A stretch of DNA of 43,789 nt, taken from contig JANPEN010000048.1 in NCBI GenBank assembly GCA_031422955.1, positions 1-43,789 on the forward strand, read 5' to 3'. Under the pieces are notes generated by a model. It was not told the origin of the DNA, searched no databases, and saw only the letters and a list, made by a program, of their open reading frames with translations. Positions within the stretch are counted from its first letter, which is position 1. Each line of letters starts with the position of its first letter. The translations under genes were made by a program, and so were the position numbers. Source of the DNA: Acidimicrobiia bacterium (GTDB taxonomy: Bacteria > Actinomycetota > Acidimicrobiia > Acidimicrobiales > CAIXPF01). Positions 8,924 to 43,789 of this stretch are shown piece by piece.

Positions 8924-10120
8924 ATGAATGAGCCTATGAATGAGCCAATAATGCCCAACCACGCCAATGATGCCGCGAATGCCGTGCCCACCCCTCGGCT
9001 GACCATCAGCGATGAGCATTTCGCCGAGCAGTTCCCGCTTTCTCCCTTGGATGATTATCTGATCCACCAGACTCCCGATCCCATTCGCGTCATGTGGAGC
9101 GGCGACCCGCGCGCCTACGAAAGATACTGGATGGTATGTCACGATCCGCAGGGGGAGGTGCTGGTGGCCACCGGGGGGAGCTTCTACCCCAACCTCGATC
9201 GGGCCGAGGCCTACGCCATCGTCAACCATCAGGGTCGTCACAGCACCGTGCGGGGCTTCCGCCGCTTGGGGGCGGACCGGGCTGATCTGCGTATCGGGCC
9301 CATCTCCCCCACCATCATCGAGGGTATGCGCTGGTGGCGCTATGCGCTGGAACCCAATCAGTGGGGGGTCAGCTTTCAGCTCGACTTCCGCGACACAACC
9401 CGCCAGGTGTTCCGAGAGCCGCTCTCCAACTCGGCGGGGGGAAGCCCCGCCGGGCGACGAAACGATGTCACCACCGGCTTCGAGAGCTTCGGTGAGGTCC
9501 AGGGCTGGGTCCAGGTGGACGGTACCCGAATCGAAATCCCTGCCGGTTCCCCTGGCACCAGGGACCGCCACTGGGGGGTCGGTCGGGGGGTCGGGGGTCC
9601 TCCCCTTTCCCTGGGTGGGCGCCTGCACGTGGGGGTATCGGGCAACGCCTTTGTGGCCTTTCCCAGTTGGACCCTGTGGGGGGACAGGGTCTTCTATCGC
9701 TACGGCGATCCCACTCCCGGCATGGGTCGGGTCAACAAACCCACCCGGCGCCTGCGTTTCGAGCCCGACACCAAGATCTTCGTGGAAGGCATCGTGGACT
9801 ACCCCCTCGAGTCGGGCGAGATCAAACAGGTGCACTATGAACGCATCGGCTACCAAACCGCCTACCTACGCTGCGGTATGTATGGCGGTACGCCGGAAGG
9901 GAACATCCATTCAGGCGGTTACGACGGCCCGGACCTCATCGAAGGCGAGACCTACGACGTGACCAAGCCCGAGGTGCGCGCCGCCATCGCTGGCTTGGAT
10001 GAGCACCTGTGTCGGGCCACCTGCAACGGTGAGGTCGCCACCGGTCTCTACCAGCCCATCGACCCCGCCGCCTACGAAGCCTGCGCGGCCGGCCGGCCCG
10101 GCTGGGCCTTCCTCACCTGA
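8924..10120 (+). CDS. Uncharacterised conserved-looking protein (398 aa), beta-rich
   Basis: High GC3 throughout. Gaps of 13 nt and 14 nt separate it from the flanking genes. Motifs seen: PLDDYLIHQTPDP, YERYWMVCHDPQGE, GTRDRHWGVGRG. Three in-frame ATGs (8924, 8936, 8951) arise from a 12-nt tandem duplication encoding MNEP-MNEP. Confidence 0.7.
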   Translation: MNEPMNEPIMPNHANDAANAVPTPRLTISDEHFAEQFPLSPLDDYLIHQTPDPIRVMWSGDPRAYERYWMVCHDPQGEVLVATGGSFYPNLDRAEAYAIVNHQGRHSTVRGFRRLGADRADLRIGPISPTIIEGMRWWRYALEPNQWGVSFQLDFRDTTRQVFREPLSNSAGGSPAGRRNDVTTGFESFGEVQGWVQVDGTRIEIPAGSPGTRDRHWGVGRGVGGPPLSLGGRLHVGVSGNAFVAFPSWTLWGDRVFYRYGDPTPGMGRVNKPTRRLRFEPDTKIFVEGIVDYPLESGEIKQVHYERIGYQTAYLRCGMYGGTPEGNIHSGGYDGPDLIEGETYDVTKPEVRAAIAGLDEHLCRATCNGEVATGLYQPIDPAAYEACAAGRPGWAFLT

Positions 10121-17377: not shown

Positions 17378-18217
17378 ATGTTGAGACGGGCCAGGGGCCA
17401 GGCGAAGGCGGCGAGTTCCGATGGACCTGTCACCATCGTCACCGGAGGCACCTTCGGGATCGGACGTCAGATCACCCTCGGGTTGGCCGAACGAGGTCAT
17501 CGGGTGGTGGCCTTCGGTCTGGAGGAACGCCAGCTATCCTCGACTGCGGGCCACTCCATCGAGGAACTACGCGGCGAGGCCAGAAGCCGGGCGCTGGCGG
17601 TGGAGGTGCTCGAGGCCGACGTCGCGCAGGCGGAGGATGTGCAACGGGTGCTGGGCCATGTCCTGCAGGTCTTTGGTCGGGTGGACGGTCTGGTCAACAA
17701 CGCGGCCATCGGCCCACTGGGCACCGTGTTGGACACCAGCGAGGCCGACTTCGATCGGATCGTGGCGGTGAACCTGCGGGGCCCGTACCTGACCAGCCGG
17801 GCGGTGCTGCCCCATTTCATCGCCCAAGGCGGAGGGGCCATTGTGAACATTGGGTCCGGTGCGGGGTGGGGCAAACACAATATGGCCGTGTACAGCGCCA
17901 CCAAGGGGGCGCTGTTCGGGCTCACTATGGCCATGGCCTATGACCATTTCGCCCAGCGGGTTCGGGTCAACCTGGTCATCCCGGGGGGAGGGGGCATCAT
18001 CACGGGGATGAGCGTGGGCCGCATGGGCGGCGACGTCGCCAAAGCCGCCGCAGGGGCCCCCGGCACCGCCGCTGGCCGGCCCGCCACCGGGGACGATGTG
18101 GCCAAGGCGGTGGCGTTCCTGTTGTCCAACGATGCCGAGGTCATCTCCGGCACCGTGGTGGATGTGGGTTGCTTCGCCGGACAGGGTGGCCCCTTGCGCC
18201 CACGCCAACCACGCTAA
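17378..18217 (+). CDS. SDR family oxidoreductase
   Basis: VTGGTFGIGRQI, NNAAIG and YSATKGAL motifs. ATG 17378 chosen. The track ORF 16799..18217 has a 190-aa non-homologous N-terminal extension that overlaps the OsmC gene in antisense. Confidence 0.9.
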   Translation: MLRRARGQAKAASSDGPVTIVTGGTFGIGRQITLGLAERGHRVVAFGLEERQLSSTAGHSIEELRGEARSRALAVEVLEADVAQAEDVQRVLGHVLQVFGRVDGLVNNAAIGPLGTVLDTSEADFDRIVAVNLRGPYLTSRAVLPHFIAQGGGAIVNIGSGAGWGKHNMAVYSATKGALFGLTMAMAYDHFAQRVRVNLVIPGGGGIITGMSVGRMGGDVAKAAAGAPGTAAGRPATGDDVAKAVAFLLSNDAEVISGTVVDVGCFAGQGGPLRPRQPR

Positions 18218-19353: not shown

Positions 19354-21954
19354 GTGGCGCCTGTGACCACCGGACAACGGGAAGTTTTTCAGCCGCAGGG
19401 GTTGACGCCGTTCGACGGTGTCCGGGTGGTGGAAGTGGCCACCGGGGTGGCCGGACCGTATGTAGGCAAGCTGTTGGGCGATTATGGCGCCGACGTCATC
19501 AAGATCGAACCCCCCGGCGGCGACCCGGCTCGCCACAACGGCCCCTTTGTCCGCGATGTGGCGGACCCCGAGCAGTCCGGGCTGTTCCTGCACCTCAACA
19601 CCAACAAGCGTTCGATCGTGGCCGAGCCCAACAGCGAGCTGGTGGCGGGGCTGGCCGCCCGGGCCGACGTGATCATCGAATCCGGCGCGGCCGGCGCGGC
19701 CAGCCGGGCCTTGGTGGCCCGGTGGCGGGCGGCCAACCCGAAGCTGGTGGTGGCCTCCCTCACCCCCTTCGGCCAGGACGGCCCCTACGCCAGCTACCGG
19801 GCTGAGGACATTGCCTTGTACGCCCTCGGCGGGCCGATGCAGGCCACCGGCGTCATCGAGCGGGAACCGCTCAAGCTGGCCGGCAACCTGCTGCAGTACC
19901 AGTGCGGGGCAGTGGGGGCGGTGGCGGTGCTGGGGGCACTGCGCCGGGCCGAGGCCAGCGGGGTGGGTGCAGCTATCGACGTGTCCAACCTGGAAACCCA
20001 GGTCGGTTCCATCGACCGGCGGATCAACTACCTGCTGTGGCACCAGTGGACGGGTCGCAACGTGACCCGCCCGCCCGCCTACGGCCAGGCGGTGTTGCCC
20101 TTCGGCTACTACCCGGCCACCGATGGTTACGCGGCCATCATCGTGGTGGCCAACTGGATCCCCAAGCTGCTCGATGTGCTCGACGATGACGAGCTGCGGG
20201 CCCGTTTCGCCACCCCGGCTTGGATGACGGATCCCGAGACCGGGGGCCATCTCGATGCCGTCATCTACAACTGGCTTTCCACCCGGACCAAGACCGAAGC
20301 CATGGTCGAAGCCCAGGCCGCCCGCTGGCCGGTCACCGCCCTCAACCGGCCCACCGATCTGTTGGTGGATGCCCATTTCAACGCCAGGGGATTTTTCGCC
20401 GACGTCGATCATCCGGTCGCTGGCTGCTACCGCACGCCGGGTCCGGGCTGGCGCATGGACAACGGGTGGGCCTTGCGTCGCCGGCCGCCCCTACTCGATG
20501 AGCACCGGGCGGAGATCCTGGCCGAGCTGGCTGACCATCGCGGCTTCGCCGCACCCGGACCCCCGGGTTCGGTCCACGTGGCTCGGCTCGCCCCGTCGGC
20601 CCGGCCAAACCCGTCGGCCGCCACGGTCCCGGGCGCGACCGCCGACCCCGACGCGCTGCCCCTGACCGGGATACGGGTGTTGGATCTGACCGTGGTGTGG
20701 TCAGGGCCCTACGCCACCATGTTGTTGGCCGACCTGGGGGCGGAGGTCATCCGAGTCGACAACCCCTGGCTGTTTCCTACGGTCACCAGGGGCAACGTTC
20801 CCCGCCCTGCGCCAGAGGCCCTGGACGGGCTGGGTCCTTTGACCGGCGCTTATTGCGACCACGACCCGGGCGAACGGCCCTGGAACCGGGCCGGTCAGTT
20901 CCTGGCCCACGCCCGCTCCAAGCTGTCAGTCACCTTGGATCTGCGCAAGGCCACCGGTAGGGAAGCCTTCCTACGTTTGGTCGACCAGGTTGACGTGATC
21001 ATTGAGAACAACTCGGTGGACGTGCTCGACAAGCTGGATCTGGGTTGGGAGGTACTTTCGGCCCGCAACCCTGCGGCGGTGCTGGTGCGCATGCCGCCCA
21101 TGGGCAGCTGGGGTCCGTACCGCAACTATCTCGGTTTCGGGTTCCATTTCGAGTCCCTGGCCGGGTCGGCCGCCCTGTGGGGCTACCGAGACGGGGACTA
21201 CGGGCTCAACAACCCCGTCTTTCCGATGGATCCCTCGGCCGGGTTGGCCGCCGCGGTGGCCACCTTGGCTGCCTTGCGCCGCCGAGACAGCACCGGGGTG
21301 GGTGAGCTGGTCGAGATCCCCCAGGTCGAATACGTGCTGCAGCACGTGGGGGAGTACCTGGTCGACGCGGCCCGCAGCGGTGTGGACCGCCAGCCCATCG
21401 GGAACCGCCATCTGGTCCATGCCCCCCAGGGTTGCTATCCCTGCCTGGGCGAGGATGCCTGGGTGGTGGTCTGCGTGGACAGCGACCAGGCCTGGCGAAG
21501 CCTGGGCCGGGCCATGGGCGATCCCGCCTGGGCAGCAGAACCGGCCCTGGCCGAGGCGGCTGGCCGGCGCGTCGACCACGACCACATCGACGCCCAGCTG
21601 GCCGCCTGGACGGGGACCATGACCGCCGGTGAGGTCTTCCATCGCCTTCAGGCCGAGGGGGTGATCGCTGCCCCGGTACTCAGCGAGGAGCACTGCTTGG
21701 CCGATCCGCACCTGCGGGCCCGGTCCTTCTTCCGGCCCAACGGCTCTGCCGACGTTCCCCTGGTCGATTTCCCCGGTCACCTGTGGCGCTGGGATGGCCC
21801 GCCTCTGGTGTGGGGGCCCACCAGCCGCCTCGGGGTCGACAACGAAGACGTGTTCCGCCGGGTGGCCGGGTTCGACGATGCCGAGCTGGCCGCCCTGCAG
21901 GAGCAGGGCCACTGGTCGCTGGATTATCTCCAGGCTGACGGCACCCCCTACTGA
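19354..21954 (+). CDS. Tandem double-domain family III CoA-transferase (CaiB/BaiF-CaiB/BaiF fusion)
   Basis: 866 aa. Domain 1 begins FDGVRVVEVATGVAGPYVGKLLGDYGADVIKIEPPGG. A Pro/Ala-rich linker covers about 20530-20655. Domain 2 begins LTGIRVLDLTVVWSGPYATMLLADLGAEVIRVDNP (from about 20656). The exact start (GTG 19354) is uncertain. Confidence 0.85.
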   Translation: MAPVTTGQREVFQPQGLTPFDGVRVVEVATGVAGPYVGKLLGDYGADVIKIEPPGGDPARHNGPFVRDVADPEQSGLFLHLNTNKRSIVAEPNSELVAGLAARADVIIESGAAGAASRALVARWRAANPKLVVASLTPFGQDGPYASYRAEDIALYALGGPMQATGVIEREPLKLAGNLLQYQCGAVGAVAVLGALRRAEASGVGAAIDVSNLETQVGSIDRRINYLLWHQWTGRNVTRPPAYGQAVLPFGYYPATDGYAAIIVVANWIPKLLDVLDDDELRARFATPAWMTDPETGGHLDAVIYNWLSTRTKTEAMVEAQAARWPVTALNRPTDLLVDAHFNARGFFADVDHPVAGCYRTPGPGWRMDNGWALRRRPPLLDEHRAEILAELADHRGFAAPGPPGSVHVARLAPSARPNPSAATVPGATADPDALPLTGIRVLDLTVVWSGPYATMLLADLGAEVIRVDNPWLFPTVTRGNVPRPAPEALDGLGPLTGAYCDHDPGERPWNRAGQFLAHARSKLSVTLDLRKATGREAFLRLVDQVDVIIENNSVDVLDKLDLGWEVLSARNPAAVLVRMPPMGSWGPYRNYLGFGFHFESLAGSAALWGYRDGDYGLNNPVFPMDPSAGLAAAVATLAALRRRDSTGVGELVEIPQVEYVLQHVGEYLVDAARSGVDRQPIGNRHLVHAPQGCYPCLGEDAWVVVCVDSDQAWRSLGRAMGDPAWAAEPALAEAAGRRVDHDHIDAQLAAWTGTMTAGEVFHRLQAEGVIAAPVLSEEHCLADPHLRARSFFRPNGSADVPLVDFPGHLWRWDGPPLVWGPTSRLGVDNEDVFRRVAGFDDAELAALQEQGHWSLDYLQADGTPY

Positions 21955-21984
21955 GCGGCCCAGGGGCTGACTAGGGTGAGCCCA

Positions 21985-22740
21985 ATGAGCGACAAGGTTC
22001 GTGTCGAGATAGTCGGCGCCGTTCGTACGGTCACCCTCACCCGTCCCGAGAAAAGCAACGCGCTGGACGCGGAGATGTTGGTCGCCCTGGAGGAAGCCTT
22101 CGATCCCGACCCCGGTCCTGGCCCGGCCGAGCGGGTGGCGGTCATCCGGGCCGAGGGCAGGGTGTTCTGCTCGGGGCTGGACCTACGGGGTGGCCTGGGC
22201 AAGGACCAGAACGTGGAAACCCTGTTTCATCGAGTGCAGACCTGGCCATTGCCGGTGGTGGCAGTGGTACAAGGCCCTGCCATCGCCGGCGGCAACGAAC
22301 TGGCCCTGCACAGCGACTTTGTGGTCGCCTCCGAGGAGGCCCGCTTCGGCATGTCGCTGGCTCAGATCGGCCTGGCTCCCTCGTGGTTCTTAACCAAGAA
22401 GCTGATGGAGGTGGGCGGCCCGGTGCTCACCAGGGAGATCCTGCTGCTGGGCGACGCGCTGCCGGCCACCCGCCTGGCCGAGCTCGGCCTCATCGCCCGC
22501 TGCGTTCCACCAGAAGAGTTGCAGGCCGCAGCGGCCGCCATCATCGATCGGTTAGTGGCCAACGCCCCGCTGAGCCTGCAGGCCATGAAGGCCACCATCA
22601 ACCGGCAACTGGCCTTCCGTGACAGCGTCGAACACGCCGACACCGAGGCGATGGTTCGCACCGCCCTCAAGAGCGCCGACGCCAAAGAAGGGGTGCGGGC
22701 CCGTCTGGAGCATCGCAACCCCAACTTCACCGGCGCCTAG
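21985..22740 (+). CDS. Enoyl-CoA hydratase/isomerase (crotonase) family protein
   Basis: TLTRPEKSNALD and VVAVVQGPAIAGGNELALHSDFVVA motifs. ATG 21985 follows AGGGTGAG. The track start GTG 21976 is the alternative. Confidence 0.9.
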   Translation: MSDKVRVEIVGAVRTVTLTRPEKSNALDAEMLVALEEAFDPDPGPGPAERVAVIRAEGRVFCSGLDLRGGLGKDQNVETLFHRVQTWPLPVVAVVQGPAIAGGNELALHSDFVVASEEARFGMSLAQIGLAPSWFLTKKLMEVGGPVLTREILLLGDALPATRLAELGLIARCVPPEELQAAAAAIIDRLVANAPLSLQAMKATINRQLAFRDSVEHADTEAMVRTALKSADAKEGVRARLEHRNPNFTGA

Positions 22741-22750
22741 CGCGCTAGCT

Positions 22751-23947
22751 TTAGTTATCTCGGGGGAAGTTGAAGAGTTGCCGGGCGACCACGACCCGTT
22801 GCACTTGCTGAGTGCCCTCGCCGATGTCGAGGATCTTCACGTCTCGATAGAGCTTCTCCAACATCAGGTCGTTGCGCACCCCCGCCTCACCCAAAATGTC
22901 CAGCGCGGCCACGACAGCCTCCAGGATCACCGGGGGCGAATAGAGCTTGGCGTAGCTGGCTTCCAGGGCGTTGGATTCACCGTTTTTGGCCAGCCAGACC
23001 GCGTTGAGGTACATCAACCGGGCGGTATGCAGGCCTCGACGGATGCGGGCCAAACGCTCCAAGGCCCGCTGCCGACGCTGGCCTTGGGCCGGATAGTCGC
23101 TGCGCACGAAGTCCAGGGCGAAGTCGTGAGCGGCGCGGCCCATGCCCACTCCGTGGGCGGTGTGGAGGGGCCGGGTCATGTTGAAGGTGGCCATGGAGGC
23201 CTTGAAACCCTTGCGGGATTGGTAGAACGCCTCGCCGCCCAGCAGGTTGTCCGCCGGTAGGCGAACATCGTCTAAGGCAAAGCTGGCCGTTTCGTAGCCA
23301 CGCGAGCCCATCTTGTGCTCGACCTTCAAGATCTCGAAGCCGGGGGTGCCCCGTTCCACCACGAAGGCCCGATGCCCCTCACGGCCCAGCTCGGGATCCA
23401 AGGTGGCCCACACGATGACCCAATCGGCCCTGGCCGAGTTGGAGCAGAACATCTTCTGCCCATTCAAAATCCACTCGTCGCTGCCGCCCGGGCCCTTCAC
23501 CTTGCGGGCCCGCGTCGCGATGCGGGCCACGTCGCTGCCGGCGCCCGGCTCGGTCATGGCCATGGCCCCCCAACGGGCCTTGGAGTGATCGTTGAAGATC
23601 TCCAGGAAACGCTGGCGCTGTTCGGGGGTGGCCGTGCTACGAAGGGCTGGTCCACCCAGGCCAGGCCCGGGAAGGGACAAAGCCACCCCGCGGTCCCAGT
23701 AGGCGGTTTCTTCGCCGAGCAGGAAGTTCCGCACCGGCTTCCAGTCCAGTGCGGTGGGACCTTCCTCGGCGCCGATCATGCGGCTGACCAATCCGCCCTT
23801 GCGGGTGCAGATCAAGTAGAAGGGATGATCCACCGGCGGTGCCAGGGCGCGGCGATCGGCTTCGAGGCCCATCGGGCGGATGTGGACCCGGCCCAGCTCG
23901 CGCACCTCCTCGAGCATCTCGCAGGTGCGGGCGTCGAGCTCGATCAT
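22751..23947 (-). CDS. Acyl-CoA dehydrogenase (catalytic, alpha-type subunit)
   Basis: 398 aa. C-terminal YRDVKILDIGEGTQQVQRVVVARQL carries the canonical catalytic Glu position (GEGT). AMTEPGAGSD motif is present. Confidence 0.9.
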   Translation of the reverse strand: MIELDARTCEMLEEVRELGRVHIRPMGLEADRRALAPPVDHPFYLICTRKGGLVSRMIGAEEGPTALDWKPVRNFLLGEETAYWDRGVALSLPGPGLGGPALRSTATPEQRQRFLEIFNDHSKARWGAMAMTEPGAGSDVARIATRARKVKGPGGSDEWILNGQKMFCSNSARADWVIVWATLDPELGREGHRAFVVERGTPGFEILKVEHKMGSRGYETASFALDDVRLPADNLLGGEAFYQSRKGFKASMATFNMTRPLHTAHGVGMGRAAHDFALDFVRSDYPAQGQRRQRALERLARIRRGLHTARLMYLNAVWLAKNGESNALEASYAKLYSPPVILEAVVAALDILGEAGVRNDLMLEKLYRDVKILDIGEGTQQVQRVVVARQLFNFPRDN

Positions 23948-25029
23948 GAGCGCTCCAAGCTGGCCAGAAGGGAATCGGGTACGTCCAGCACGTGGGCAGC
24001 CACGTCGAAGTCGGCCGCGTCACGGGCGCCGACGGTCATGGCCAACATACGGGCCTCGCGAAAGCGCTTTTCGGCTAGATGGTCCACGATGAAGCCGTGC
24101 CCGCCCAACAGTTGGATGCCCACGTTGGTGGCGTTGAAGGCGGCTTCCATGGTTTCCAACCAGGCCTGGGTGGCCCAGAAGCCGGCGTCGGGTTCGCCCC
24201 GATCGAAAGCGGCGGCGGCGTCACGAACCACCAGGCGGGCGCCGTGGATGCGAGCGGCGGCGGCGGCCAGATCGAAGGCGTTGCCCTGATGGTGCGCCAC
24301 CGGCTTGCCGAACACGATCCGCTCGGTGGTGTACTCGATGGTCTCCATAAGGGCGGCTTGGGCGATGCCCACCGCCACGGCAGCTCCCCACAGCCTGGCC
24401 CTTCCCCGCACGGCCAGGGCCGCACGAGGGCTCAGCTCCCACGAACCACGAACCACGGTGGCGTCGAAGGCAACGGACACCGCGCCGGAGGCCTGAAAGG
24501 CCAACACGGTGAGCGGCTCGGGCGAGCCGGTGACCTCGAGCAGGCGAAGGATGTTGCCCTCGCTGACCCAGATCCAACGGAGGGCGGGCCATCCCGGCGC
24601 CCAGTCGATGCCCTTGGCGCCGTTGCGGGAACTGGAGCCGTTCTCGACATCAACCACGGTGAAAGCGCATTGGGCGGCGCCGTCCCGACAGCTGTCCATG
24701 ATCTGGCGGGCAAGTGCCCGGTCGGGACAGGCCGAGACGGCCCCAGCGCTGGGCCCGGGACGATCGGCGGCGGCCAGACCGCTGGCGTCGGCCATGGCCA
24801 AGGTCTCCAGCACCACCACTTTGGCCAGGCAGCCGGCACCGACCCCGCCGAGTTCCTCGTCAACGTCGAGCCCGCCCAGCGGGAAGCCATCGAGCACGGC
24901 CAGCACGGAGTCCGGCCAGCGGCCGGCGGCTTCGGCGTCGCGCACGTTCGGTTCGAGCTGTGATCGGGCCAGGCGCTCGGCCGCAGCTCGAAGCTCCTCG
25001 AGTTCGGGAGCGAGGGCGAAGTCACGCAT
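23944..25029 (-). CDS. Acyl-CoA dehydrogenase family protein (degenerate, beta-type subunit)
   Basis: 361 aa with ACAD-fold pattern. ATGA overlap with the downstream ACAD. The segment aligned to the catalytic IxEGT reads MTVGARD, so there is no Glu at that position. Confidence 0.8.
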   Translation of the reverse strand: MRDFALAPELEELRAAAERLARSQLEPNVRDAEAAGRWPDSVLAVLDGFPLGGLDVDEELGGVGAGCLAKVVVLETLAMADASGLAAADRPGPSAGAVSACPDRALARQIMDSCRDGAAQCAFTVVDVENGSSSRNGAKGIDWAPGWPALRWIWVSEGNILRLLEVTGSPEPLTVLAFQASGAVSVAFDATVVRGSWELSPRAALAVRGRARLWGAAVAVGIAQAALMETIEYTTERIVFGKPVAHHQGNAFDLAAAAARIHGARLVVRDAAAAFDRGEPDAGFWATQAWLETMEAAFNATNVGIQLLGGHGFIVDHLAEKRFREARMLAMTVGARDAADFDVAAHVLDVPDSLLASLERS

Positions 25030-26678: not shown

Positions 26679-26806
26679 GGGAATAGGCTCCTTGTTCTCT
26701 GGGCGCAAGGTTTCCCTGCGCTCTCAGCTCGCAGCGCCGGGGGGCCGTGCGCTTGTTGCACCCCATACCCCAGGACCTTTCGTTCAAACGGGTTAGGGTC
26801 CGGCTT

Positions 26807-28003
26807 ATGGGACTTCGAGGAGACGCCGCCATCGTCGGCGTGGCTGAATACCGACCAGAGCGCCACTATCGGGGTGAACGCATCTTCATGCTCGAGCAAT
26901 GGGCGGACCTCGCGGCCGCCGCCTTGGCCGACGCCGGGTTGCGCTCGTCAGACGTGAACGGCTTGGTCTGTGCCAACGTGCGGGAATCGGACATGTTCGT
27001 GCCCTGCACGGTGGCGGAGTACTTGGGTTGGCGGGTCAACTTCGCTGAGCGGGTGGACCTGGGCGGCGCAACACCAATCGGTATGGTATGGCGGGCGGCG
27101 GCTGCCATCGAGCTGGGGCTGTGCGATGTGGTGGTGTGCGCCACCCCGGCCCGTCCCACCCCCAGCCTGCCGCCCGACCAGCCCAGGGCATGGTCCCCGT
27201 TCGGGGCATCGTCCAACATCATGGGCTCGCCCCAGGCCGAGTTCGACATTCCCTTCGGCAACCTGGCCCAGAATTGCGGTTACGCCATGATTGCCAACCG
27301 TTATGCGGCCGAGTACGGCTACGACCAGAGAGCCACCGCCAAGATCGTGGTGGATCAACGCACCAACGCCTGCGCCAACCCCGACGCGGTGTTCTTCGGT
27401 CAGCCCATCACCATTGAGGACGTGCTGGCCTCCAAGATGGTGGCGGATCCGTTGCATGTGCTGGAGATCGTCATGCCCTGCGCCGGCGGTGCTGCGGTGG
27501 TGGTGGCTTCCAAGGAGGTGGCCGCCCGCAGCCGCCATCGCCCCGCGTTCGTCACCGGGTTCGGCGAGCATCTGATGCATAAGACCCCGACCTACTCGCC
27601 GGATCTCTTACACACCCCCATCGGGCCGGCGGCCGAGCAGGCCTTTTCCATGGCGGGTATCGGCAGGGCCGGGGTTGATGTGGCCGAGCTTTACGACTGC
27701 TACAGCATCACCGTGCTGTTGAGCATCGAGGACTCCGGTTTCTGCGCTAAAGGGGAAGGGATGGCCTTCGTGGCGGACCACAATCTTACCTACGCCGGGG
27801 ATTTTCCGGTGAACACCCACGGCGGCCAGCTCGGCTTCGGCCAAACCGGCCTGGCCGGGGGGTTCACCCAGGTGACGGAGGCGGTGCGCCAGCTGCGAGG
27901 CGACGCCGGGGACCATCAGGTGGCGGGCTGCGATACCGCATACTGCTCGGGCACGGGAGGCATCATGTCCGAACAGACCGCCCTCATCCTTCAGGGAGGC
28001 TGA
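26807..28003 (+). CDS. Thiolase-like (SCP-x/Ltp-type) protein lacking the nucleophilic Cys
   Basis: AAIVGVAEY, GQPITIEDVLASKMVADPLHVLE and PVNTHGGQLGFGQ motifs of SCP-x-type thiolases. The segment where thiolases carry the acyl-accepting Cys reads LGGATPIGMV. ATG 26807. Confidence 0.85.
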   Translation: MGLRGDAAIVGVAEYRPERHYRGERIFMLEQWADLAAAALADAGLRSSDVNGLVCANVRESDMFVPCTVAEYLGWRVNFAERVDLGGATPIGMVWRAAAAIELGLCDVVVCATPARPTPSLPPDQPRAWSPFGASSNIMGSPQAEFDIPFGNLAQNCGYAMIANRYAAEYGYDQRATAKIVVDQRTNACANPDAVFFGQPITIEDVLASKMVADPLHVLEIVMPCAGGAAVVVASKEVAARSRHRPAFVTGFGEHLMHKTPTYSPDLLHTPIGPAAEQAFSMAGIGRAGVDVAELYDCYSITVLLSIEDSGFCAKGEGMAFVADHNLTYAGDFPVNTHGGQLGFGQTGLAGGFTQVTEAVRQLRGDAGDHQVAGCDTAYCSGTGGIMSEQTALILQGG

Positions 28004-28008
28004 GGACC

Positions 28009-28464
<456 letters not shown>

Positions 28465-28575: not shown

Positions 28576-29328
28576 TCAGCCGACGAGGTCCAAGTCGTTG
28601 CCGTCGGCGTGGTGCAGGTCGACGTCGACTTCGCTGAAGTCCAGCTCGGCCTTCCAGCTGTCGTTGTCCTCGTAGCGGCTGTTGTCCTCGTAGGTGTACT
28701 CCAGCGTGGTCAGCTGGGTGTCGTTGTCTTCAATGTCGGTGTTGAAGCTGTCCTGGAGGGTGGTGGACTGGGTGTCGTTGTCTTCGACCTTGGTGTTGAA
28801 GCTGTCTTCCACCTTGGTGTTGAAGCTATCCTCGACCGAGTTGTCGGTGTTGAAGCTGTCTTCGATGTTGGTGGAGTTGTCCTCCAGGGCGTTGGCGCTG
28901 TTGCGGTCCCCGAACACGAAGTTGGCCGGCCCGTCGGAGTTGGAGGCATCGACATCGATGTCGCCGAAGGTCTTGTTGCCGTTGCCGTTGACCACTTGAG
29001 CGTCGCCGCCGTCGGTGTCGACGTCGATCAGGTCACCCCTGCCCATGTTGACGTTCTCGCCCTCGATGTTGGTGGCGCTGCCCCGCTGGGCGAAGGCGCC
29101 CACGGTCGAGTCGTTGAACTGCACGTTGCCGTTGCCCACGGTGGAGTGGTCGAGGGAGACATCGTCCCCGGCCATGATGCCGGTGTTGAGGCCGGTGTTG
29201 ATGGCGGAGTCCTCGACGCTGCCGTTGACGGCCACGCCGCCGGCCAGAGCCGTAACCGAGTCACTGTCGAGGGTCTGATCGAAGTCGATGTCGTGGCCGG
29301 AAAGCTCGGTGATCGTCTGGTTTTTCAT
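28576..29328 (-). CDS. Highly acidic Asp/Asn/Ser/Thr/Gly-rich repeat protein, function unknown
   Basis: 250 aa from ATG 29328, preceded by AAAGGA. Minus-strand codons end almost exclusively in C/G, whereas the same-register plus-strand ORF 28543..29376 has low GC3. No Cys, no N-terminal hydrophobic signal. Contains (V/I)EDSFNT repeats. Confidence 0.75.
   Translation of the reverse strand: MKNQTITELSGHDIDFDQTLDSDSVTALAGGVAVNGSVEDSAINTGLNTGIMAGDDVSLDHSTVGNGNVQFNDSTVGAFAQRGSATNIEGENVNMGRGDLIDVDTDGGDAQVVNGNGNKTFGDIDVDASNSDGPANFVFGDRNSANALEDNSTNIEDSFNTDNSVEDSFNTKVEDSFNTKVEDNDTQSTTLQDSFNTDIEDNDTQLTTLEYTYEDNSRYEDNDSWKAELDFSEVDVDLHHADGNDLDLVG
28714..28857 (-). repeat. Intragenic tandem repeats (54-nt unit with a 24-nt sub-repeat)
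   Basis: CTGGGTGTCGTTGTCTTC at 28714 and 28768. GGTGTTGAAGCT at 28738, 28792, 28816 and 28846. These encode DSFNT(D/K)(I/V)EDNDTQ(L/S)TTL and KVEDSFNT units. Confidence 0.9.
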
Positions 29329-29421
29329 GGTCCTGGTCCTTTGGTGCTGGGCTCGTTCGCAGGCCGGATTGGCTGACAACTGCGACGGTACGCTCCCCCA
29401 GTCCGCACCGGATCGGGGCCA

Positions 29422-30885: not shown

Positions 30886-31103
30886 GGCTGAGTATTCTGG
30901 CCGGCCCGAAACACCGTGGCCCGGTCCACATCGCCCACCGGGGCGGCGTGGATCATGGCCAGCTGGCGTCGGATGGGCCCGTAAAGCTGAGCCAGCCGGG
31001 CCACCTCCTCTGGCGGGGGCTGGAGGCCGGCTGCAGCCAGCAGCGACTCCACGATCAGCTTGTTTTCAGCGGTTGCTTCGGGCACCAGGCAACCGTATCC
31101 CAC
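30882..31103 (-). CDS. GatC/AtzG-like small subunit candidate (56-73 aa)
   Basis: Its stop overlaps the amidase ATG (ATGA at 30882-30885). High GC3 from about codon 16 onward. The helical pattern LIVESLLAAAGLQPPPEEVARLAQLYGPIRRQLAMIHAAPVGDVD resembles GatC. Possible starts are GTG 31103, 31085 or 31052. The last lies 11 nt after the MFS stop. Confidence 0.55.
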   Translation of the reverse strand: MGYGCLVPEATAENKLIVESLLAAAGLQPPPEEVARLAQLYGPIRRQLAMIHAAPVGDVDRATVFRAGQNTQP

Positions 31104-32427
31104 CGCCCTCGGGCCCGGGACCCGATCGAGGTGGCGTTTCTGGTTGCCGGCTGGCCGCTTGCCAGCCGCGGCCCATGCCCGCCACCGGGGTGCGGGTCAG
31201 CTCGTAGACCAAGGTGGTCACCGCCACCACTACCGCCATACCAATTAGTACGTCGCGCAGGCCGATGGCGTCGGCCAGCAGGCCCAGCGGCAACGCCGCC
31301 AGCCCGAAGCCGGAAAAGCCCAGCTGCAACAATGACTGCAGCCGGCCGTGGAACTCCCGCTCGGAGTGGGCCAGTACCAGCGAGGCGCTGAGGGACTGGA
31401 AGGCGGCACTGGTTCCCCCCAGGCCCACCATGGCCAGGGCGGCCAGGGGCAGGCTGGGGCTCCAGGCCAGGGCCAGCTCGGCCAGCGCGAAACCGGCCCC
31501 GGAAAGCCACAGCAGCCGCCAGGCCTGCACACCGCCGGCTCGCCGGGCGATGGCCAAGGTGGCAGCGATGCCGCCCACCGCGCTGGCCACCGACAGGAAC
31601 GAATAGCCAGAAGGGCCGGCGTTGAACAGGTCCTCGGCCACGCTGGGCAGGAAGGCCACATAGGGAAAGCCGAACATGATGACGATGGTGGACAGCAACA
31701 ACAGGGCCAACACCGGACGGTTGTGGCGGGCGTAGGAGGCGCCGTTGGCCAGCTCGCGCAGGGGGGCGGCCCGGTGGGCCCCGGAGACCGCGCCCTTGGG
31801 CAGACGAGCGAACAGGACCAGGGCTACCAGGTTGATCAGCGCCCCGAACACGTAAACCCCGCCGATACCGATGGCCTGGGTACCGATCATGACCCCGGCC
31901 AAGGAGGGGCCGAGCACCCGATTGGCGTTGAGGGAGAGCTGGCTCAACACGATGGCGTTGGACAACAACTCGGGGCCGACCAACTCGGCGGTGAAGGCGA
32001 TACGGGCCGGGCCGGTGCCGGCGAAGCCGATGGCCTGCAGGGCCGAGGCCACCATCAGCATCCAGAACTTGATGAAGTCGAACTCGACCGCCACCGCGAT
32101 CCAGATCGAGGAGGTGACCAGGATGAGCTGGGAGGTGACCAACACGGTCCGTTTGGCGAAGCGATCCGCGGCCACCCCGCCCAGGGGGGTAGCCACCAGG
32201 CTGGCCACCCCGAAACCCAGGGTCACCGCGCCCAGGCCACGGTTGTTGCCGGTCAGTTGATGGGCGAGCCAACCCCTGGCGATGACCTGCGCGAAGGTGG
32301 ACAGAAAGGCGAAGAAGCCGGCGATCCATAAGCGCCGGTAGACGGGGTGGTGGAGCGAGGCAAAGGTGCCGTGGGGGGGGCGTGGCCCCGCCAGGGCGGG
32401 ATCCGCCGCACGGCCGGGGCGGGTCAT
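31066..32427 (-). CDS. MFS transporter
   Basis: 453 aa from ATG 32427 (MTRPGRAADP...SLHHPVYRRLWIAGFFAFL). About 12 hydrophobic spans and a GGVAADRFAKRTVL loop motif. Track ORF 31066..33306 is artificially extended upstream. Confidence 0.88.
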   Translation of the reverse strand: MTRPGRAADPALAGPRPPHGTFASLHHPVYRRLWIAGFFAFLSTFAQVIARGWLAHQLTGNNRGLGAVTLGFGVASLVATPLGGVAADRFAKRTVLVTSQLILVTSSIWIAVAVEFDFIKFWMLMVASALQAIGFAGTGPARIAFTAELVGPELLSNAIVLSQLSLNANRVLGPSLAGVMIGTQAIGIGGVYVFGALINLVALVLFARLPKGAVSGAHRAAPLRELANGASYARHNRPVLALLLLSTIVIMFGFPYVAFLPSVAEDLFNAGPSGYSFLSVASAVGGIAATLAIARRAGGVQAWRLLWLSGAGFALAELALAWSPSLPLAALAMVGLGGTSAAFQSLSASLVLAHSEREFHGRLQSLLQLGFSGFGLAALPLGLLADAIGLRDVLIGMAVVVAVTTLVYELTRTPVAGMGRGWQAASRQPETPPRSGPGPEGGGIRLPGARSNR

Positions 32428-32583
32428 CAGCGAGGTGACCGGAGGGCGGACGGGGGAGAGAGCGGCGCGGTCGTGGCGGTTACGGTAGCGGCGCTCCGCC
32501 GATGGGACCAGCTCACCTGAACTTGCCGCGGAACCCGCTCGCCGGGCCCGACGCCGCGACATGGTCGAGCTCCATGGTGCACG

Positions 32584-33819
32584 ATGACAACAATGACGGA
32601 TCACCTCGACGCCCATCAGCACGCCGCCCCCATGGCCGACGCTCCCACCGGGCCCCTGGTGGGCATGCGGATCCTCGATCTCACCCACGCCCTGGCCGGG
32701 CCTTTCGGCAGTATGTTTCTGGCCGACCTGGGGGCCGACGTCATCAAGATCGAACCACCGGCGGGGGAGATGGTGCGCTTCGCGGGGCCCTACACCCGCG
32801 ACGACGAGGCCCGCCTCTACGGTTCCCGCTACGGCTCCCGCAACCGCAACAAGCGTTCCATTGCCCTGGATCTGGCCACCGAGGCCGATCGGGAGACCTT
32901 CTTCCAGCTGGTCGAGACGGCCGACGGTCTGTTGGAGAACCAGCGGGCCGGGGTGCTCGACCGCCTCGGTGTGGGCTATGAGGCCTGTCGGGCCCGCAAC
33001 CCGAAGCTGGTCTATGCGGCTGTGCGAGGTTTCGGGGACCCCCGCACCGGGGCCAGCCCCTACGCCAACTGGCCCGCCTTCGACCCCATCGCCCAGGCCA
33101 TGGGTGGGGTGGTCGCCTCGACCGGCACCGACGGCGAGCACCTGTTGCGCTGCGGACCGCCCATCGGGGACACGGTGCCCGGGCTGATGGCCGCCTTGGG
33201 CATGGTCGCCGCCATCCACCACGCCCAGCGCAGCGGGGTCGGCCAGTTCCTCGACGTGGCCATGGTGGACGCCATGATCTCCGTGTCCAGCGAGAGCCTG
33301 ACCCAATGGAGCTATACCGGCCGGTCCCAGCGGCCCTCAGGCAACTCGGTAGACGGGATAACTCCATTTGACATCTATCCCACCCTCGATGGACATTGCG
33401 CCATCGCCGCCCCTACGGCGCATCACTGGGCCCGGCTGTGCAATGTGGTGGGTCGGCCCGACCTCATCGAGGATGAGCGCACGGCCGGCATGCGTCGCCG
33501 GGTCAAGCACCGTGACCTGGTCGACGAGGCGGTCGGGGGCTGGGCGGCAGCCCACACCACCGCGGAAGTGGTGGCCGCCCTGGGTGATCAAGTGCCGGTG
33601 GGGCCCGTCTACGGGCCCGCCGACTGGGTTCAGGACCCCCACGTGGCCGCCCGCCAGATGCTGGTGGCGGTCGAGCATGGCCACCACCGTCCCACCATCC
33701 AGGCCAATTGCCCGATCCGCTTCACCGAGACGCCTGCGGGCATCTACCGCAGTCCCGCCACCCTGGACCAGCACGGCCCCGAGCTACGGGCGGAGCTCGA
33801 CCAACGCGGCCAAGGCTGA
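32584..33819 (+). CDS. Family III CoA-transferase (CaiB/BaiF)
   Basis: LVGMRILDLTHALAGPFGSMFLADLGADVIKIEPPAGE. The catalytic-Asp segment is NWPAFDPIAQAMGG. Confidence 0.92.
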   Translation: MTTMTDHLDAHQHAAPMADAPTGPLVGMRILDLTHALAGPFGSMFLADLGADVIKIEPPAGEMVRFAGPYTRDDEARLYGSRYGSRNRNKRSIALDLATEADRETFFQLVETADGLLENQRAGVLDRLGVGYEACRARNPKLVYAAVRGFGDPRTGASPYANWPAFDPIAQAMGGVVASTGTDGEHLLRCGPPIGDTVPGLMAALGMVAAIHHAQRSGVGQFLDVAMVDAMISVSSESLTQWSYTGRSQRPSGNSVDGITPFDIYPTLDGHCAIAAPTAHHWARLCNVVGRPDLIEDERTAGMRRRVKHRDLVDEAVGGWAAAHTTAEVVAALGDQVPVGPVYGPADWVQDPHVAARQMLVAVEHGHHRPTIQANCPIRFTETPAGIYRSPATLDQHGPELRAELDQRGQG

Positions 33820-42559: not shown

Positions 42560-42651
42560 CGGACACCTTCGCTCCCGGGTTGGGCTTGGTGGGCTTGTCT
42601 CCCGAACGCTAGCCAGTTGTTAGGTTGGCGCTACGTGAGCAGGGAGACGAC

Positions 42652-43789
42652 ATGCTGTCCGACTACCGGGTGCTAGATCTGACCGATGAGCGAGGCCATC
42701 TGGCCGGCTTCATCCTTGGTCAACTGGGGGCGGAGGTCATTGCCATCGAACCGCCAGGGGGATCTTCGGCCCGCCGGCTTGGTCCCTTCGCCGGTGACGT
42801 GGAAGATCCCGAACGTTCCTTGGCCCATTGGGCCTACAACCGGGGCAAGAAAAGTGTGGTGCTCGACCTCGACGCAGAAGCGGATCGGGAACGCTTACGG
42901 GGCTTGGTGCGGGGGGCCGACGTGCTCATCGAGTCTGCCGAACCGGGTGGTATGCAGGCGCGGGGGTTAGGGATAGCGGCCCTGGCCGAGCTGAACCCTG
43001 CTCTCATCCACGTGTCTATTACCGCCTTCGGCAGCGACGGTCCCAAGGCCAACTGGGCCGTCACCGATCTCGTCATCCAGGCCTCGGCGGGCAACATGGT
43101 CCTCAACGGTGACAAGGACCGGGCGCCGGTACGCGCCGGCGGCACCCTGCCGCAGGCCTACCACAACGCGGCCTCGGAGGCGGCGGGGGCCACCCTCATC
43201 GCGCTGTTCGAGCGCCAGAACCGCTCGGGTCTTGGCCAACACATCGACATGTCAGCCCAGCAATCGATGAGCCAGTCGGCCCAGTCGATGCTGTTGGCTA
43301 CCCCGCTCAACGCCAGGCCCACCACCCGCATCGCCGGCGGGGCCAACCTCGGCGGCATCGACATCCAGCTGATGTGGCCCTGCAAGGACGGGTTCGCCTC
43401 CGTGACGTTGCTCTTCGGCTCTGGTTTCGCCCGTTTCACCGAACGGCTGATGGCTTGGGTGTGTGAGGAGGGCTTCTGCGACGAGGCCACCCGGGACAAG
43501 GACTGGACCTTCTACGCCATGATGCTGCTCGACGGCAGGGAGCCGGTCGAGGAGTACACCAGGGTCAAGCAGTGCCTGACCGACTTCTTCGCCACCAAGA
43601 CCAAAGCCGAGTTGCTCGACGCTGCCCTCAGCCGGCGGGTGCTGATCACCCCGGTGTGGACCACGGCTGAGGTGCTGGCGAGCGAGCAACTGGCTTTTCG
43701 CCACTACTGGGACGAGGTTGACCACGGCGATGTGGGTACCGTGCGCTATCCGGGCCCTTTCGCCAAGTTCAGCGCCACCCCGCTGGCCA
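42652..43789 (+). CDS. Family III CoA-transferase (CaiB/BaiF), 3' end beyond the window
   Basis: Absent from the track because no stop lies in the window. ATG 42652 follows AGGGAGA. Translation is MLSDYRVLDLTDERGHLAGFILGQLGAEVIAIEPPGG...ITAFGSDGP...VTDLVIQASAGN. Confidence 0.88.
   Translation, partial: MLSDYRVLDLTDERGHLAGFILGQLGAEVIAIEPPGGSSARRLGPFAGDVEDPERSLAHWAYNRGKKSVVLDLDAEADRERLRGLVRGADVLIESAEPGGMQARGLGIAALAELNPALIHVSITAFGSDGPKANWAVTDLVIQASAGNMVLNGDKDRAPVRAGGTLPQAYHNAASEAAGATLIALFERQNRSGLGQHIDMSAQQSMSQSAQSMLLATPLNARPTTRIAGGANLGGIDIQLMWPCKDGFASVTLLFGSGFARFTERLMAWVCEEGFCDEATRDKDWTFYAMMLLDGREPVEEYTRVKQCLTDFFATKTKAELLDAALSRRVLITPVWTTAEVLASEQLAFRHYWDEVDHGDVGTVRYPGPFAKFSATPLA

Follow-up and report, generated by a model that had tools for sequence, protein, structure and literature searches.

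The window, a 43,789-nucleotide stretch of DNA from an Acidimicrobiia bacterium, encodes a two-domain family III (type III) CoA-transferase that is very probably a BbsEF-like heteromeric family III enzyme whose two kinds of subunit are covalently fused, with a catalytic C-terminal module and an N-terminal module as its partner. As residue D626 of the C-terminal module occupies the Asp169/Asp178 nucleophile column and is invariant, and as the N-terminal module has a glutamine there, the C-terminal half is predicted from the alignments to be the active one, D626 being its nucleophile, and the N-terminal module to be devoid of one.

The gene is a single open frame of 866 codons on the forward strand, from a GTG at 19354 to a TGA at 21952-21954, with a GC3 of 0.85. 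PF02515 matches it in two stretches, for a total of 511.5 bits versus a cut-off of 23.3 bits, and the best NCBIfam matches of the 866-aa protein are succinyl-CoA-dependent transferases. Its components are as follows:

19354..21954, + strand: two-domain family III (type III) CoA-transferase gene (P0001), 866 aa (ORF; PF02515 twice, E 1.7e-153)
19405..20541, + strand: N-terminal module, residues ~18-396, putatively non-catalytic, BbsEF chain A-like (phmmer; module tree)
20542..20658, + strand: Pro/Ala-rich interdomain linker, residues ~397-435 (sequence; pLDDT about 50-62)
20659..21951, + strand: C-terminal module, residues ~436-866, putatively catalytic, BbsEF chain B-like (phmmer, Foldseek, module tree)

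Two complete CaiB-like domains fused through a Pro/Ala-rich linker had been recognized in the initial annotation, and they are indeed two PF02515 modules in one frame. In the linker (ADHRGFAAPGPPGSVHVARLAPSARPNPSAATVPGATADPDALP), 18 of 40 residues are Ala or Pro; the inter-module gap of paralogues, taken from domain envelopes, ranges from about 3 to 32 residues. We identified 120 homologues, 51-80% identical, that are single proteins covering 97-99% of the 866-aa length. The fusion is therefore genuine. We ruled out that two genes had been joined by a frameshift or an assembly artefact, the frame being open and full-length single-chain homologues numerous. AlphaFold2 predicts the whole chain as one compact body (pLDDT 93.8, pTM 0.94), the linker alone being disordered. 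In this model, the pTM implies a confident packing of both modules, and the initial proposal of a pseudo-dimer made of two family III modules in one chain is supported. Alternatively, the N module of one chain could pair with the C module of a second chain instead of with its own. In phmmer comparisons with the PDB, the N module matches 4ed9_A (8.6e-41) and 9fn0_A (9.7e-31), and the best match of the C module is 9fn0_B (1.2e-43). Foldseek returned 9fn0_D/B and 9fol_D as best matches of the C module (TMt 0.90).

Residue columns were assigned by hmmalign with the native numbering of Escherichia coli YfdW and CaiB, and pairwise phmmer alignments served as an independent comparison. The key positions are the following:

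19807..19809, + strand: D152 (GAC), in the G.GP....D...QA..G column, which is the YfdW Glu140 column (HMM alignment)
19894..19896, + strand: Q181 (CAG), N-module residue in the true nucleophile column, without a carboxylate (HMM alignment)
21004..21009, + strand: E551-N552, canonical 'EN' motif of the C module (YfdW columns 95-96)
21139..21141, + strand: G596 (GGG), C-module residue in the YfdW Glu140 column (HMM alignment)
21151..21153, + strand: E600, sub-family-invariant Glu at the conserved Gln position of D...QA (alignment)
21229..21231, + strand: D626 (GAT), predicted catalytic nucleophile, in the column of CaiB/YfdW Asp169 and BbsEF chain B Asp178 (hmmalign, phmmer)
21400..21411, + strand: G683-N684-R685-H686, GNxH-type small-domain loop of the C module (alignment)

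Asp169 of both E. coli CaiB and YfdW falls in one HMM column, which also holds C-module D626 and N-module Q181 and lies ~29 residues downstream of the D152/G596 column. The pairwise alignments of both modules agree with this, matching 'pmDpsaG' of the C module with 'lgDsntG' of YfdW. Index 178 of 9fn0_B is also an Asp in the D626 column; PDB entry 9fol is entitled 'BbsEF, D178-CoA adduct', and Asp169 mutants of FRC and CaiB are named in PDB titles. In the two columns, 9fn0_A has Asp and Tyr and 9fn0_B Gly and Asp, and the N and C modules show the same pattern, the roles of the BbsEF subunits being those given by the PDB entry titles. The asymmetric active/inactive fusion suggested by the initial annotation stands in that only one module appears competent; its halves are reversed, with D626 in the C module and Q181 in the N module. 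The supposed loss of the catalytic Asp from domain 2 is contradicted, because a rigorous, HMM-guided alignment places an acidic residue of that domain in the catalytic column, and this residue is D626, not E600. As a general rule, E600 acting as a relocated nucleophile was ruled out: this Glu is found in one paralogue group only, and D626 lies in the proven column.

This pattern was followed in three sets of sequences: 121 close homologues, 17 fused paralogues from the same genome, and 39 fused ORFs from Actinomycetota, Chloroflexota, Proteobacteria, Myxococcota, and others. The D626 column is Asp in 121/121, 17/17, and 38/39 of them, respectively. The N-module nucleophile column is never Asp in the 17 paralogues (W in six, F in five, S and Y in two each, T and Q in one each); among the 121 homologues it is mostly Q (84), then S (24), A (4), R (3), and others. 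It is acidic in three of the 39 distant ORFs, and one of the 39 shows the reverse pattern. The D152 column holds Asp or Glu in all 121 homologues and all 17 N modules of the genome. Conversely, the G596 column is Gly in 121/121 homologues and Gly or Ala in 17/17 C modules. E600 is Glu in every homologue (121/121) and, within the genome, only in the C48/C217/C484 paralogue group. The 'EN' motif, which acts in CoA binding in FRC structures and may do so here, is limited to the C module (121/121 homologues), the N module having E-S. A GNx[DH] loop is present in 17/17 C modules of the genome, and N684 in 121/121 homologues. Invariant positions number 13 in the N module versus about 46 in the C module; the sub-family retains the N-module G-P loop.

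The survey of fused genes proposed initially shows that the fusion is widespread and not special to 19354-21954. The same genome also has unfused two-gene pairs (contigs C135, C145, and C217). In a tree of all its modules, N modules group with nucleophile-less single-domain partners, C modules group with Gly-type singles, and a third clade contains canonical singles, mostly with both acids. Judged from these residues, all fused family III transferases of the genome obey one rule, with a predicted non-catalytic N module and a predicted catalytic C module. Literature searches on fused transferases and on the putative two-domain protein Rv1866 found nothing useful.

BbsEF shares with the fused protein the family III fold and two types of protomers, one nucleophile-less (chain A) and one nucleophile-bearing (chain B, Asp178). 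However, its two subunits are encoded by two genes, whereas here both protomers are in one ORF, and the identity is only about 28%. Moreover, 9fn0_B has an Asn at i+4 after the Gly, where E600 is an invariant Glu, and BbsEF is without the GNRH loop found in our C module. In homodimeric family III enzymes, one protomer contributes its large domain to the active site and its partner the small domain, and the Asp of YfdE and the loop opposite it belong to different subunits (PMC3720670). The homodimers FRC/YfdW, CaiB, YfdE, SUGCT, and 4ed9 resemble the modules in fold (TMt 0.80-0.91) and in the nucleophile column, but they carry two identical sites per dimer, whereas here the halves have diverged and there is one nucleophile per pseudo-dimer.

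We infer catalysis at D626 in a composite active site, intramolecular interlocking of the modules, and a role in the pathway encoded by the neighboring genes. D626 would form the acyl-aspartyl anhydride and aspartyl-CoA thioester intermediates of this enzyme class. The N module, its nucleophile lost (Q181), would be an obligatory interlocking partner, whose small domain most likely provides the loop closing over D626. Since D626 is in the C module and the nucleophile of the N module is lost, there would be one catalytic site per chain. The reaction would most likely convert a carboxylic acid into its CoA thioester, with CoA donated by, for example, succinyl-CoA. The genes around the transferase are a bbs-like beta-oxidation set:

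17378..18217, + strand: short-chain dehydrogenase (SDR), probable start ATG 17378 (PF00106, E 4.5e-44)
21976..22740, + strand: enoyl-CoA hydratase, 22 nt downstream of the transferase (PF00378, E 2.6e-45)
22751..25029, - strand: two overlapping acyl-CoA dehydrogenase (ACAD) genes, 22751-23947 and 23944-25029, convergent with the transferase operon
26747..28464, + strand: SCPx-type thiolase (26747-28003) and DUF35 zf/OB ChsH2-type protein (28009-28464) (domain matches)

The hydratase is probably co-transcribed with the transferase. The CoA-thioester product would enter the adjoining hydratase, the acyl-CoA dehydrogenase pair, the SDR, and the thiolase with its DUF35 protein. A 77%-identical orthologue (L003/L004) keeps the hydratase neighbor, the acyl-CoA dehydrogenase pair, and the thiolase/DUF35 pair. 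The bbs operon has the same kinds of genes: dehydrogenase, hydratase, SDR, and thiolase with a DUF35 protein (PMC10818641). No PFL-like glycyl-radical enzyme was found in the 95.7%-complete genome, and the gene set is therefore not that of anaerobic toluene degradation, in which benzylsuccinate synthase provides the substrate benzylsuccinate.

The site formed by the N-module large domain and the C-module small domain is lacking a nucleophile, but it keeps an invariant acid (D152) and would face the conserved GNx[DH] loop. By the alignments, this N-side site is not degenerate: an acid at D152 in 121/121 homologues, together with a conserved C-module GNRH loop that would lie opposite, is unexpected for a purely structural site. 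It is conceivable, though rather doubtful, that this is no fossil but a ligand-binding or second catalytic site, and that E600 marks an unrecognised substrate class in a bbs-like aerobic pathway of Acidimicrobiia. If true, the second site would make the fused enzymes bifunctional, like DddD. That both sites are functional, with CoA transfer at D626 in the C-module site, we regard as unlikely. The acid at D152 is maintained in homologues and paralogues alike despite the nucleophile loss, the C modules keep their GNx[DH] loop and the N modules of the sub-family their G-P loop, and DddD has been described as bifunctional (PMC6006322). However, the N module is without the 'EN' motif (N to S) and is much less conserved, and the conserved residues may merely stabilise the interface. 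BbsEF chain A has the same acid, and we found no second activity assigned to it.

In the initial annotation, the catalytic Asp was placed in the D152 column, so that module 1 would be the active half, using D152 as its nucleophile, while module 2 would be an inactive partner in which G596 replaces the lost catalytic Asp. The residues themselves had been read correctly. The GAC codon at 19807-19809 is exactly D152, a Gly (G596) occupies the same HMM column in module 2 (MGSWGPYRNYLGFGFHFESLAG), and the other three transferases of the window read ..FDPIAQAMGG, ..FDFIAQGMAG, and ..TDLVIQASAG; the domain-2 segment, given there as about 21124-21165, actually spans 21100-21165. The invariance of both the acid at D152 and the Gly at G596 in the 121 homologues is compatible with this reading, as is the Asp of D...QA..G kept in 33/33 canonical single-domain paralogues. 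Nevertheless, we consider it highly improbable: the column corresponds to Glu140 in YfdW (E. coli formyl-CoA transferase) and to Asn in CaiB, the proven Asp169 aligning elsewhere, and module 1 has a Gln in the nucleophile column. Furthermore, the BbsEF CoA adduct sits on D178, in the chain whose residue in the D152 column is Gly, the D177A mutant of UctC (YfdE Asp173) is inactive (PMC3720670), and the key Asp of PtmU4 lies in the C-terminal domain (PMC6006322).

Among two-domain type III enzymes, only PtmU4 and DddD have been characterised, and they likewise show tandem type III domains per chain, a poorly conserved linker, and a catalytic Asp in the C-terminal domain (PMC6006322). Compared by description, PtmU4 transfers sulfur to acyl-CoA and has an adjoining acyl-CoA synthetase gene, and DddD has DMSP as its substrate and lyase activity as well, whereas our transferase belongs to a beta-oxidation-type cluster. 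Although these are the sole precedents, a PtmU4-type thioacid-forming sulfur transferase or a DddD-type DMSP transferase/lyase, instead of an acid:acyl-CoA transferase, is hardly credible, as PtmU4 operates together with sulfur-carrier proteins and an acyl-CoA synthetase partner (PMC6006322), the scanned ORFs of the window include no AMP-binding or ThiS-like gene, the conserved neighbors are beta-oxidation enzymes, and the best NCBIfam matches depend on succinyl-CoA.

The architecture is thus not new, and this transferase is an ordinary member of an already described, widespread two-domain class. The main value of the result is a correction: the D...QA..G Asp of family III CoA-transferases is easily confused with the nucleophile. 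With 95 PF02515 modules in this genome, of which about 18 belong to fused genes, fused family III transferases represent a large, biochemically unexplored share of carboxylic-acid catabolism in Acidimicrobiia-like bacteria.

The 866-aa family III CoA-transferase is encoded by an uninterrupted frame running from GTG to TGA (19354-21954, + strand), whose GC3 of 0.85 is typical for genuine genes of this 67% GC window. The CoA_transf_3 domain (PF02515) is matched twice in the protein by Pfam. As the initial annotation had proposed, the two modules are joined by a Pro/Ala-rich linker; it reads ADHRGFAAPGPPGSVHVARLAPSARPNPSAATVPGATADPDALP, in which 18 of 40 residues are Ala or Pro. That annotation had itself envisaged a sequencing or assembly frameshift joining two genes. 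Each of 120 homologues (51-80% identity) is one protein of 770-900 residues covering 97-99% of the query, so the fusion is not such an artefact. Those with a named source are mostly from metagenome-assembled genomes of Acidimicrobiales and other Actinomycetota.

The initial annotation took the acidic residue of the motif G.GP....D...QA..G as catalytic. Its readings of the sequence are correct: D152 of the N module is encoded by GAC at 19807-19809, and the second module has Gly at this position (...GFGFHFESLAG, G596 at 21139-21141). We aligned two reference proteins with an established nucleophile and readable native numbering, CaiB and YfdW/Frc of Escherichia coli, to an HMM made from this family. 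PDB titles ("CaiB mutant D169A", "Formyl-CoA transferase mutant Asp169 to Ala/Ser/Glu", "aspartyl-CoA thioester intermediates") designate Asp169, and both proteins have Asp at native residue 169 (CaiB PYTAD169YFSG, YfdW AALGD169SNTG). The motif column corresponds to Glu140 of YfdW (KAYE140NVAQAAGG) and to Asn in CaiB; the Asp169 column is distinct and lies about 29 residues downstream. It is occupied by D626 in the C module (FPMD626PSAG) and by Q181 in the N module (NLLQ181YQCG). Pairwise phmmer alignments, made without the family HMM, gave an identical registration for YfdW against the C module ('lgDsntG' and 'pmDpsaG') and for 4ed9 against the N module ('afaDiftG' and 'nllQyqcG'). The motif acid is thus not the proven nucleophile. 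The asymmetry inferred earlier stands, with one active half, and it is the C module that carries the predicted catalytic Asp: the interpretation was right in spirit and reversed in detail.

Residues in the two columns among 121 sequences of the orthologous group (number of sequences after each residue)
N module: Glu140 column, E80 and D41; Asp169 column, Q84, S24, A4, R3 and others
C module: Glu140 column, G121; Asp169 column, D121

In the PDB, the C module scores best against chain B of benzylsuccinate CoA-transferase (9fn0_B, E 1.2e-43), and the N module matches 4ed9_A and 9fn0_A. Foldseek likewise ranks 9fn0_D/B and 9fol_D at the top (TMt 0.90). Entry 9fol is entitled "BbsEF, D178-CoA adduct"; at index 178 of the BbsEF chains printed by HMMER, chain A has Ala and chain B has Asp, the latter aligned to the Asp169 column. 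In the Glu140 and Asp169 columns, chain A has Asp/Tyr and chain B Gly/Asp, the same pattern as the N and C modules. As judged from these columns, the protein is a fusion of a chain-A-type and a chain-B-type subunit, in this order, and its C-terminal half is the predicted catalytic one.

Family III CoA-transferases are very strongly expanded in this Acidimicrobiia genome (4.78 Mb, 640 contigs), with 95 PF02515 matches and about 18 fused two-domain genes.

Seventeen fused ORFs of this genome are complete. Every one of the 17 C modules combines Asp in the nucleophile column with Gly or Ala in the Glu140 column. In the 17 N modules, the Glu140 column is always acidic (Asp or Glu), and the nucleophile column holds W, F, Y, S, T or Q. 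On contigs C135, C145, and C217, single-domain genes without one or the other acid adjoin genes that complement them, and at least these three pairs are unfused BbsEF-like pairs. In a FastTree phylogeny of all PF02515 modules of the genome, three clades are distinguishable: N modules with nucleophile-less singles, C modules with Gly-type singles, and canonical singles, the majority with both acids. The sub-trees of the N and C modules show largely the same branching, so the heteromer is ancient, and duplication of either the pair or the fusion gave rise to the paralogues. The third 'single' transferase of the window (VTDLVIQASAG; 42625-43788, + strand) has the motif reported for it. It is the nucleophile-less N-terminal module of another fused gene, cut by the contig end; its residue in the Asp169 column is Tyr, and its sister is the N module of the contig C104 fusion.

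Sampling one genome per species, we found relatives encoded by at least 592 stretches from Actinomycetota, Chloroflexota (Dehalococcoidia), Bacillota, Alpha-, Gamma-, and Deltaproteobacteria, Myxococcota, Binatia, and Verrucomicrobiia. Among the 39 distant survey ORFs with two complete modules, the C module has Asp in the nucleophile column in 38, and this column is without an acid in the N module of 35. It is acidic in the N module of three, and one ORF shows the reverse pattern, with both acids in the N module and Gly in the nucleophile column of the C module. These exceptions may have arisen by independent fusion or be active at both sites.

AlphaFold2 (120 aligned sequences) modeled the whole chain with a mean pLDDT of 93.8 and a pTM of 0.94, only residues 1-12 and the linker being of low confidence. 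Such a pTM over 866 residues implies that the modules are confidently positioned against each other, and the model supports an intramolecular pseudo-dimer; ring-through-ring threading and active-site distances are deduced rather than measured. In YfdE, the loop opposite the covalent Asp is contributed by the other subunit and is GNxH in place of the Gly-rich loop of FRC (PMC3720670). By analogy, the small-domain loop of the N module should cover D626. This loop reads R239-PPAYGQ, with R239 invariant; its counterpart in most other paralogues is RxxGGG. The canonical E551-N552 motif is kept in the C module of all 121 sequences and is E-S in the N module. At the nucleophile-less site the acid at D152 is invariant and, by the YfdE geometry, should face the GNx[DH] loop found in all C modules (G683-N684-R685-H686, 21400-21411); together they may serve as a structural latch or as a residual site for a ligand. 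E600 (21151-21153), at the conserved Gln position of D...QA in the catalytic module, is invariant in the orthologous group and restricted to one paralogue group in this genome.

The transferase gene has the following neighbours:
22 nt downstream of the transferase gene: enoyl-CoA hydratase
22751-25029, - strand: two acyl-CoA dehydrogenases overlapping by 4 nt (23944-23947), convergent with the transferase
near the transferase: SCPx-type thiolase and DUF35 (ChsH2 zf/OB) protein
near the transferase: short-chain dehydrogenase (SDR)
near the transferase: 2OG-Fe(II) oxygenase

The hydratase, dehydrogenase pair, thiolase, DUF35 protein, and SDR are all kept near a 77%-identical orthologue, and not around the more distant homologues examined. 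The same enzyme set is described for the bbs beta-oxidation pathway (PMC10818641). As no PFL-like glycyl-radical enzyme was found in this genome, the substrate would be another carboxylic acid than in that pathway, probably a substituted or dicarboxylic acid. The best NCBIfam matches, below threshold, are succinyl-CoA-dependent transferases. The overlapping dehydrogenase pair resembles the heteromeric alpha/beta enzymes of steroid side-chain degradation; the upstream gene has only weak N-domain Pfam matches and none to the middle domain. Elsewhere in the window, the MFS match of the 746-aa ORF 31066-33306 (- strand) is limited to residues 313-708, and its 5' part overlaps a canonical CoA-transferase gene (32584-33819, + strand), so that the MFS gene probably starts near 32370. 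Two well-coding ORFs have no Pfam match (8924-10120, + strand, GC3 0.79; 28576-29379, - strand, GC3 0.91).

Dong et al. (PMC6006322) noted a conserved Asp in the C-terminal domain of two-domain enzymes, among which only DddD had been characterized earlier, and reported a 125-400-fold loss of activity in Asp430 mutants of PtmU4. Both the architecture and the C-terminal catalytic Asp were therefore already described, and the 866-aa transferase is an uncharacterized member of a known, widespread class.
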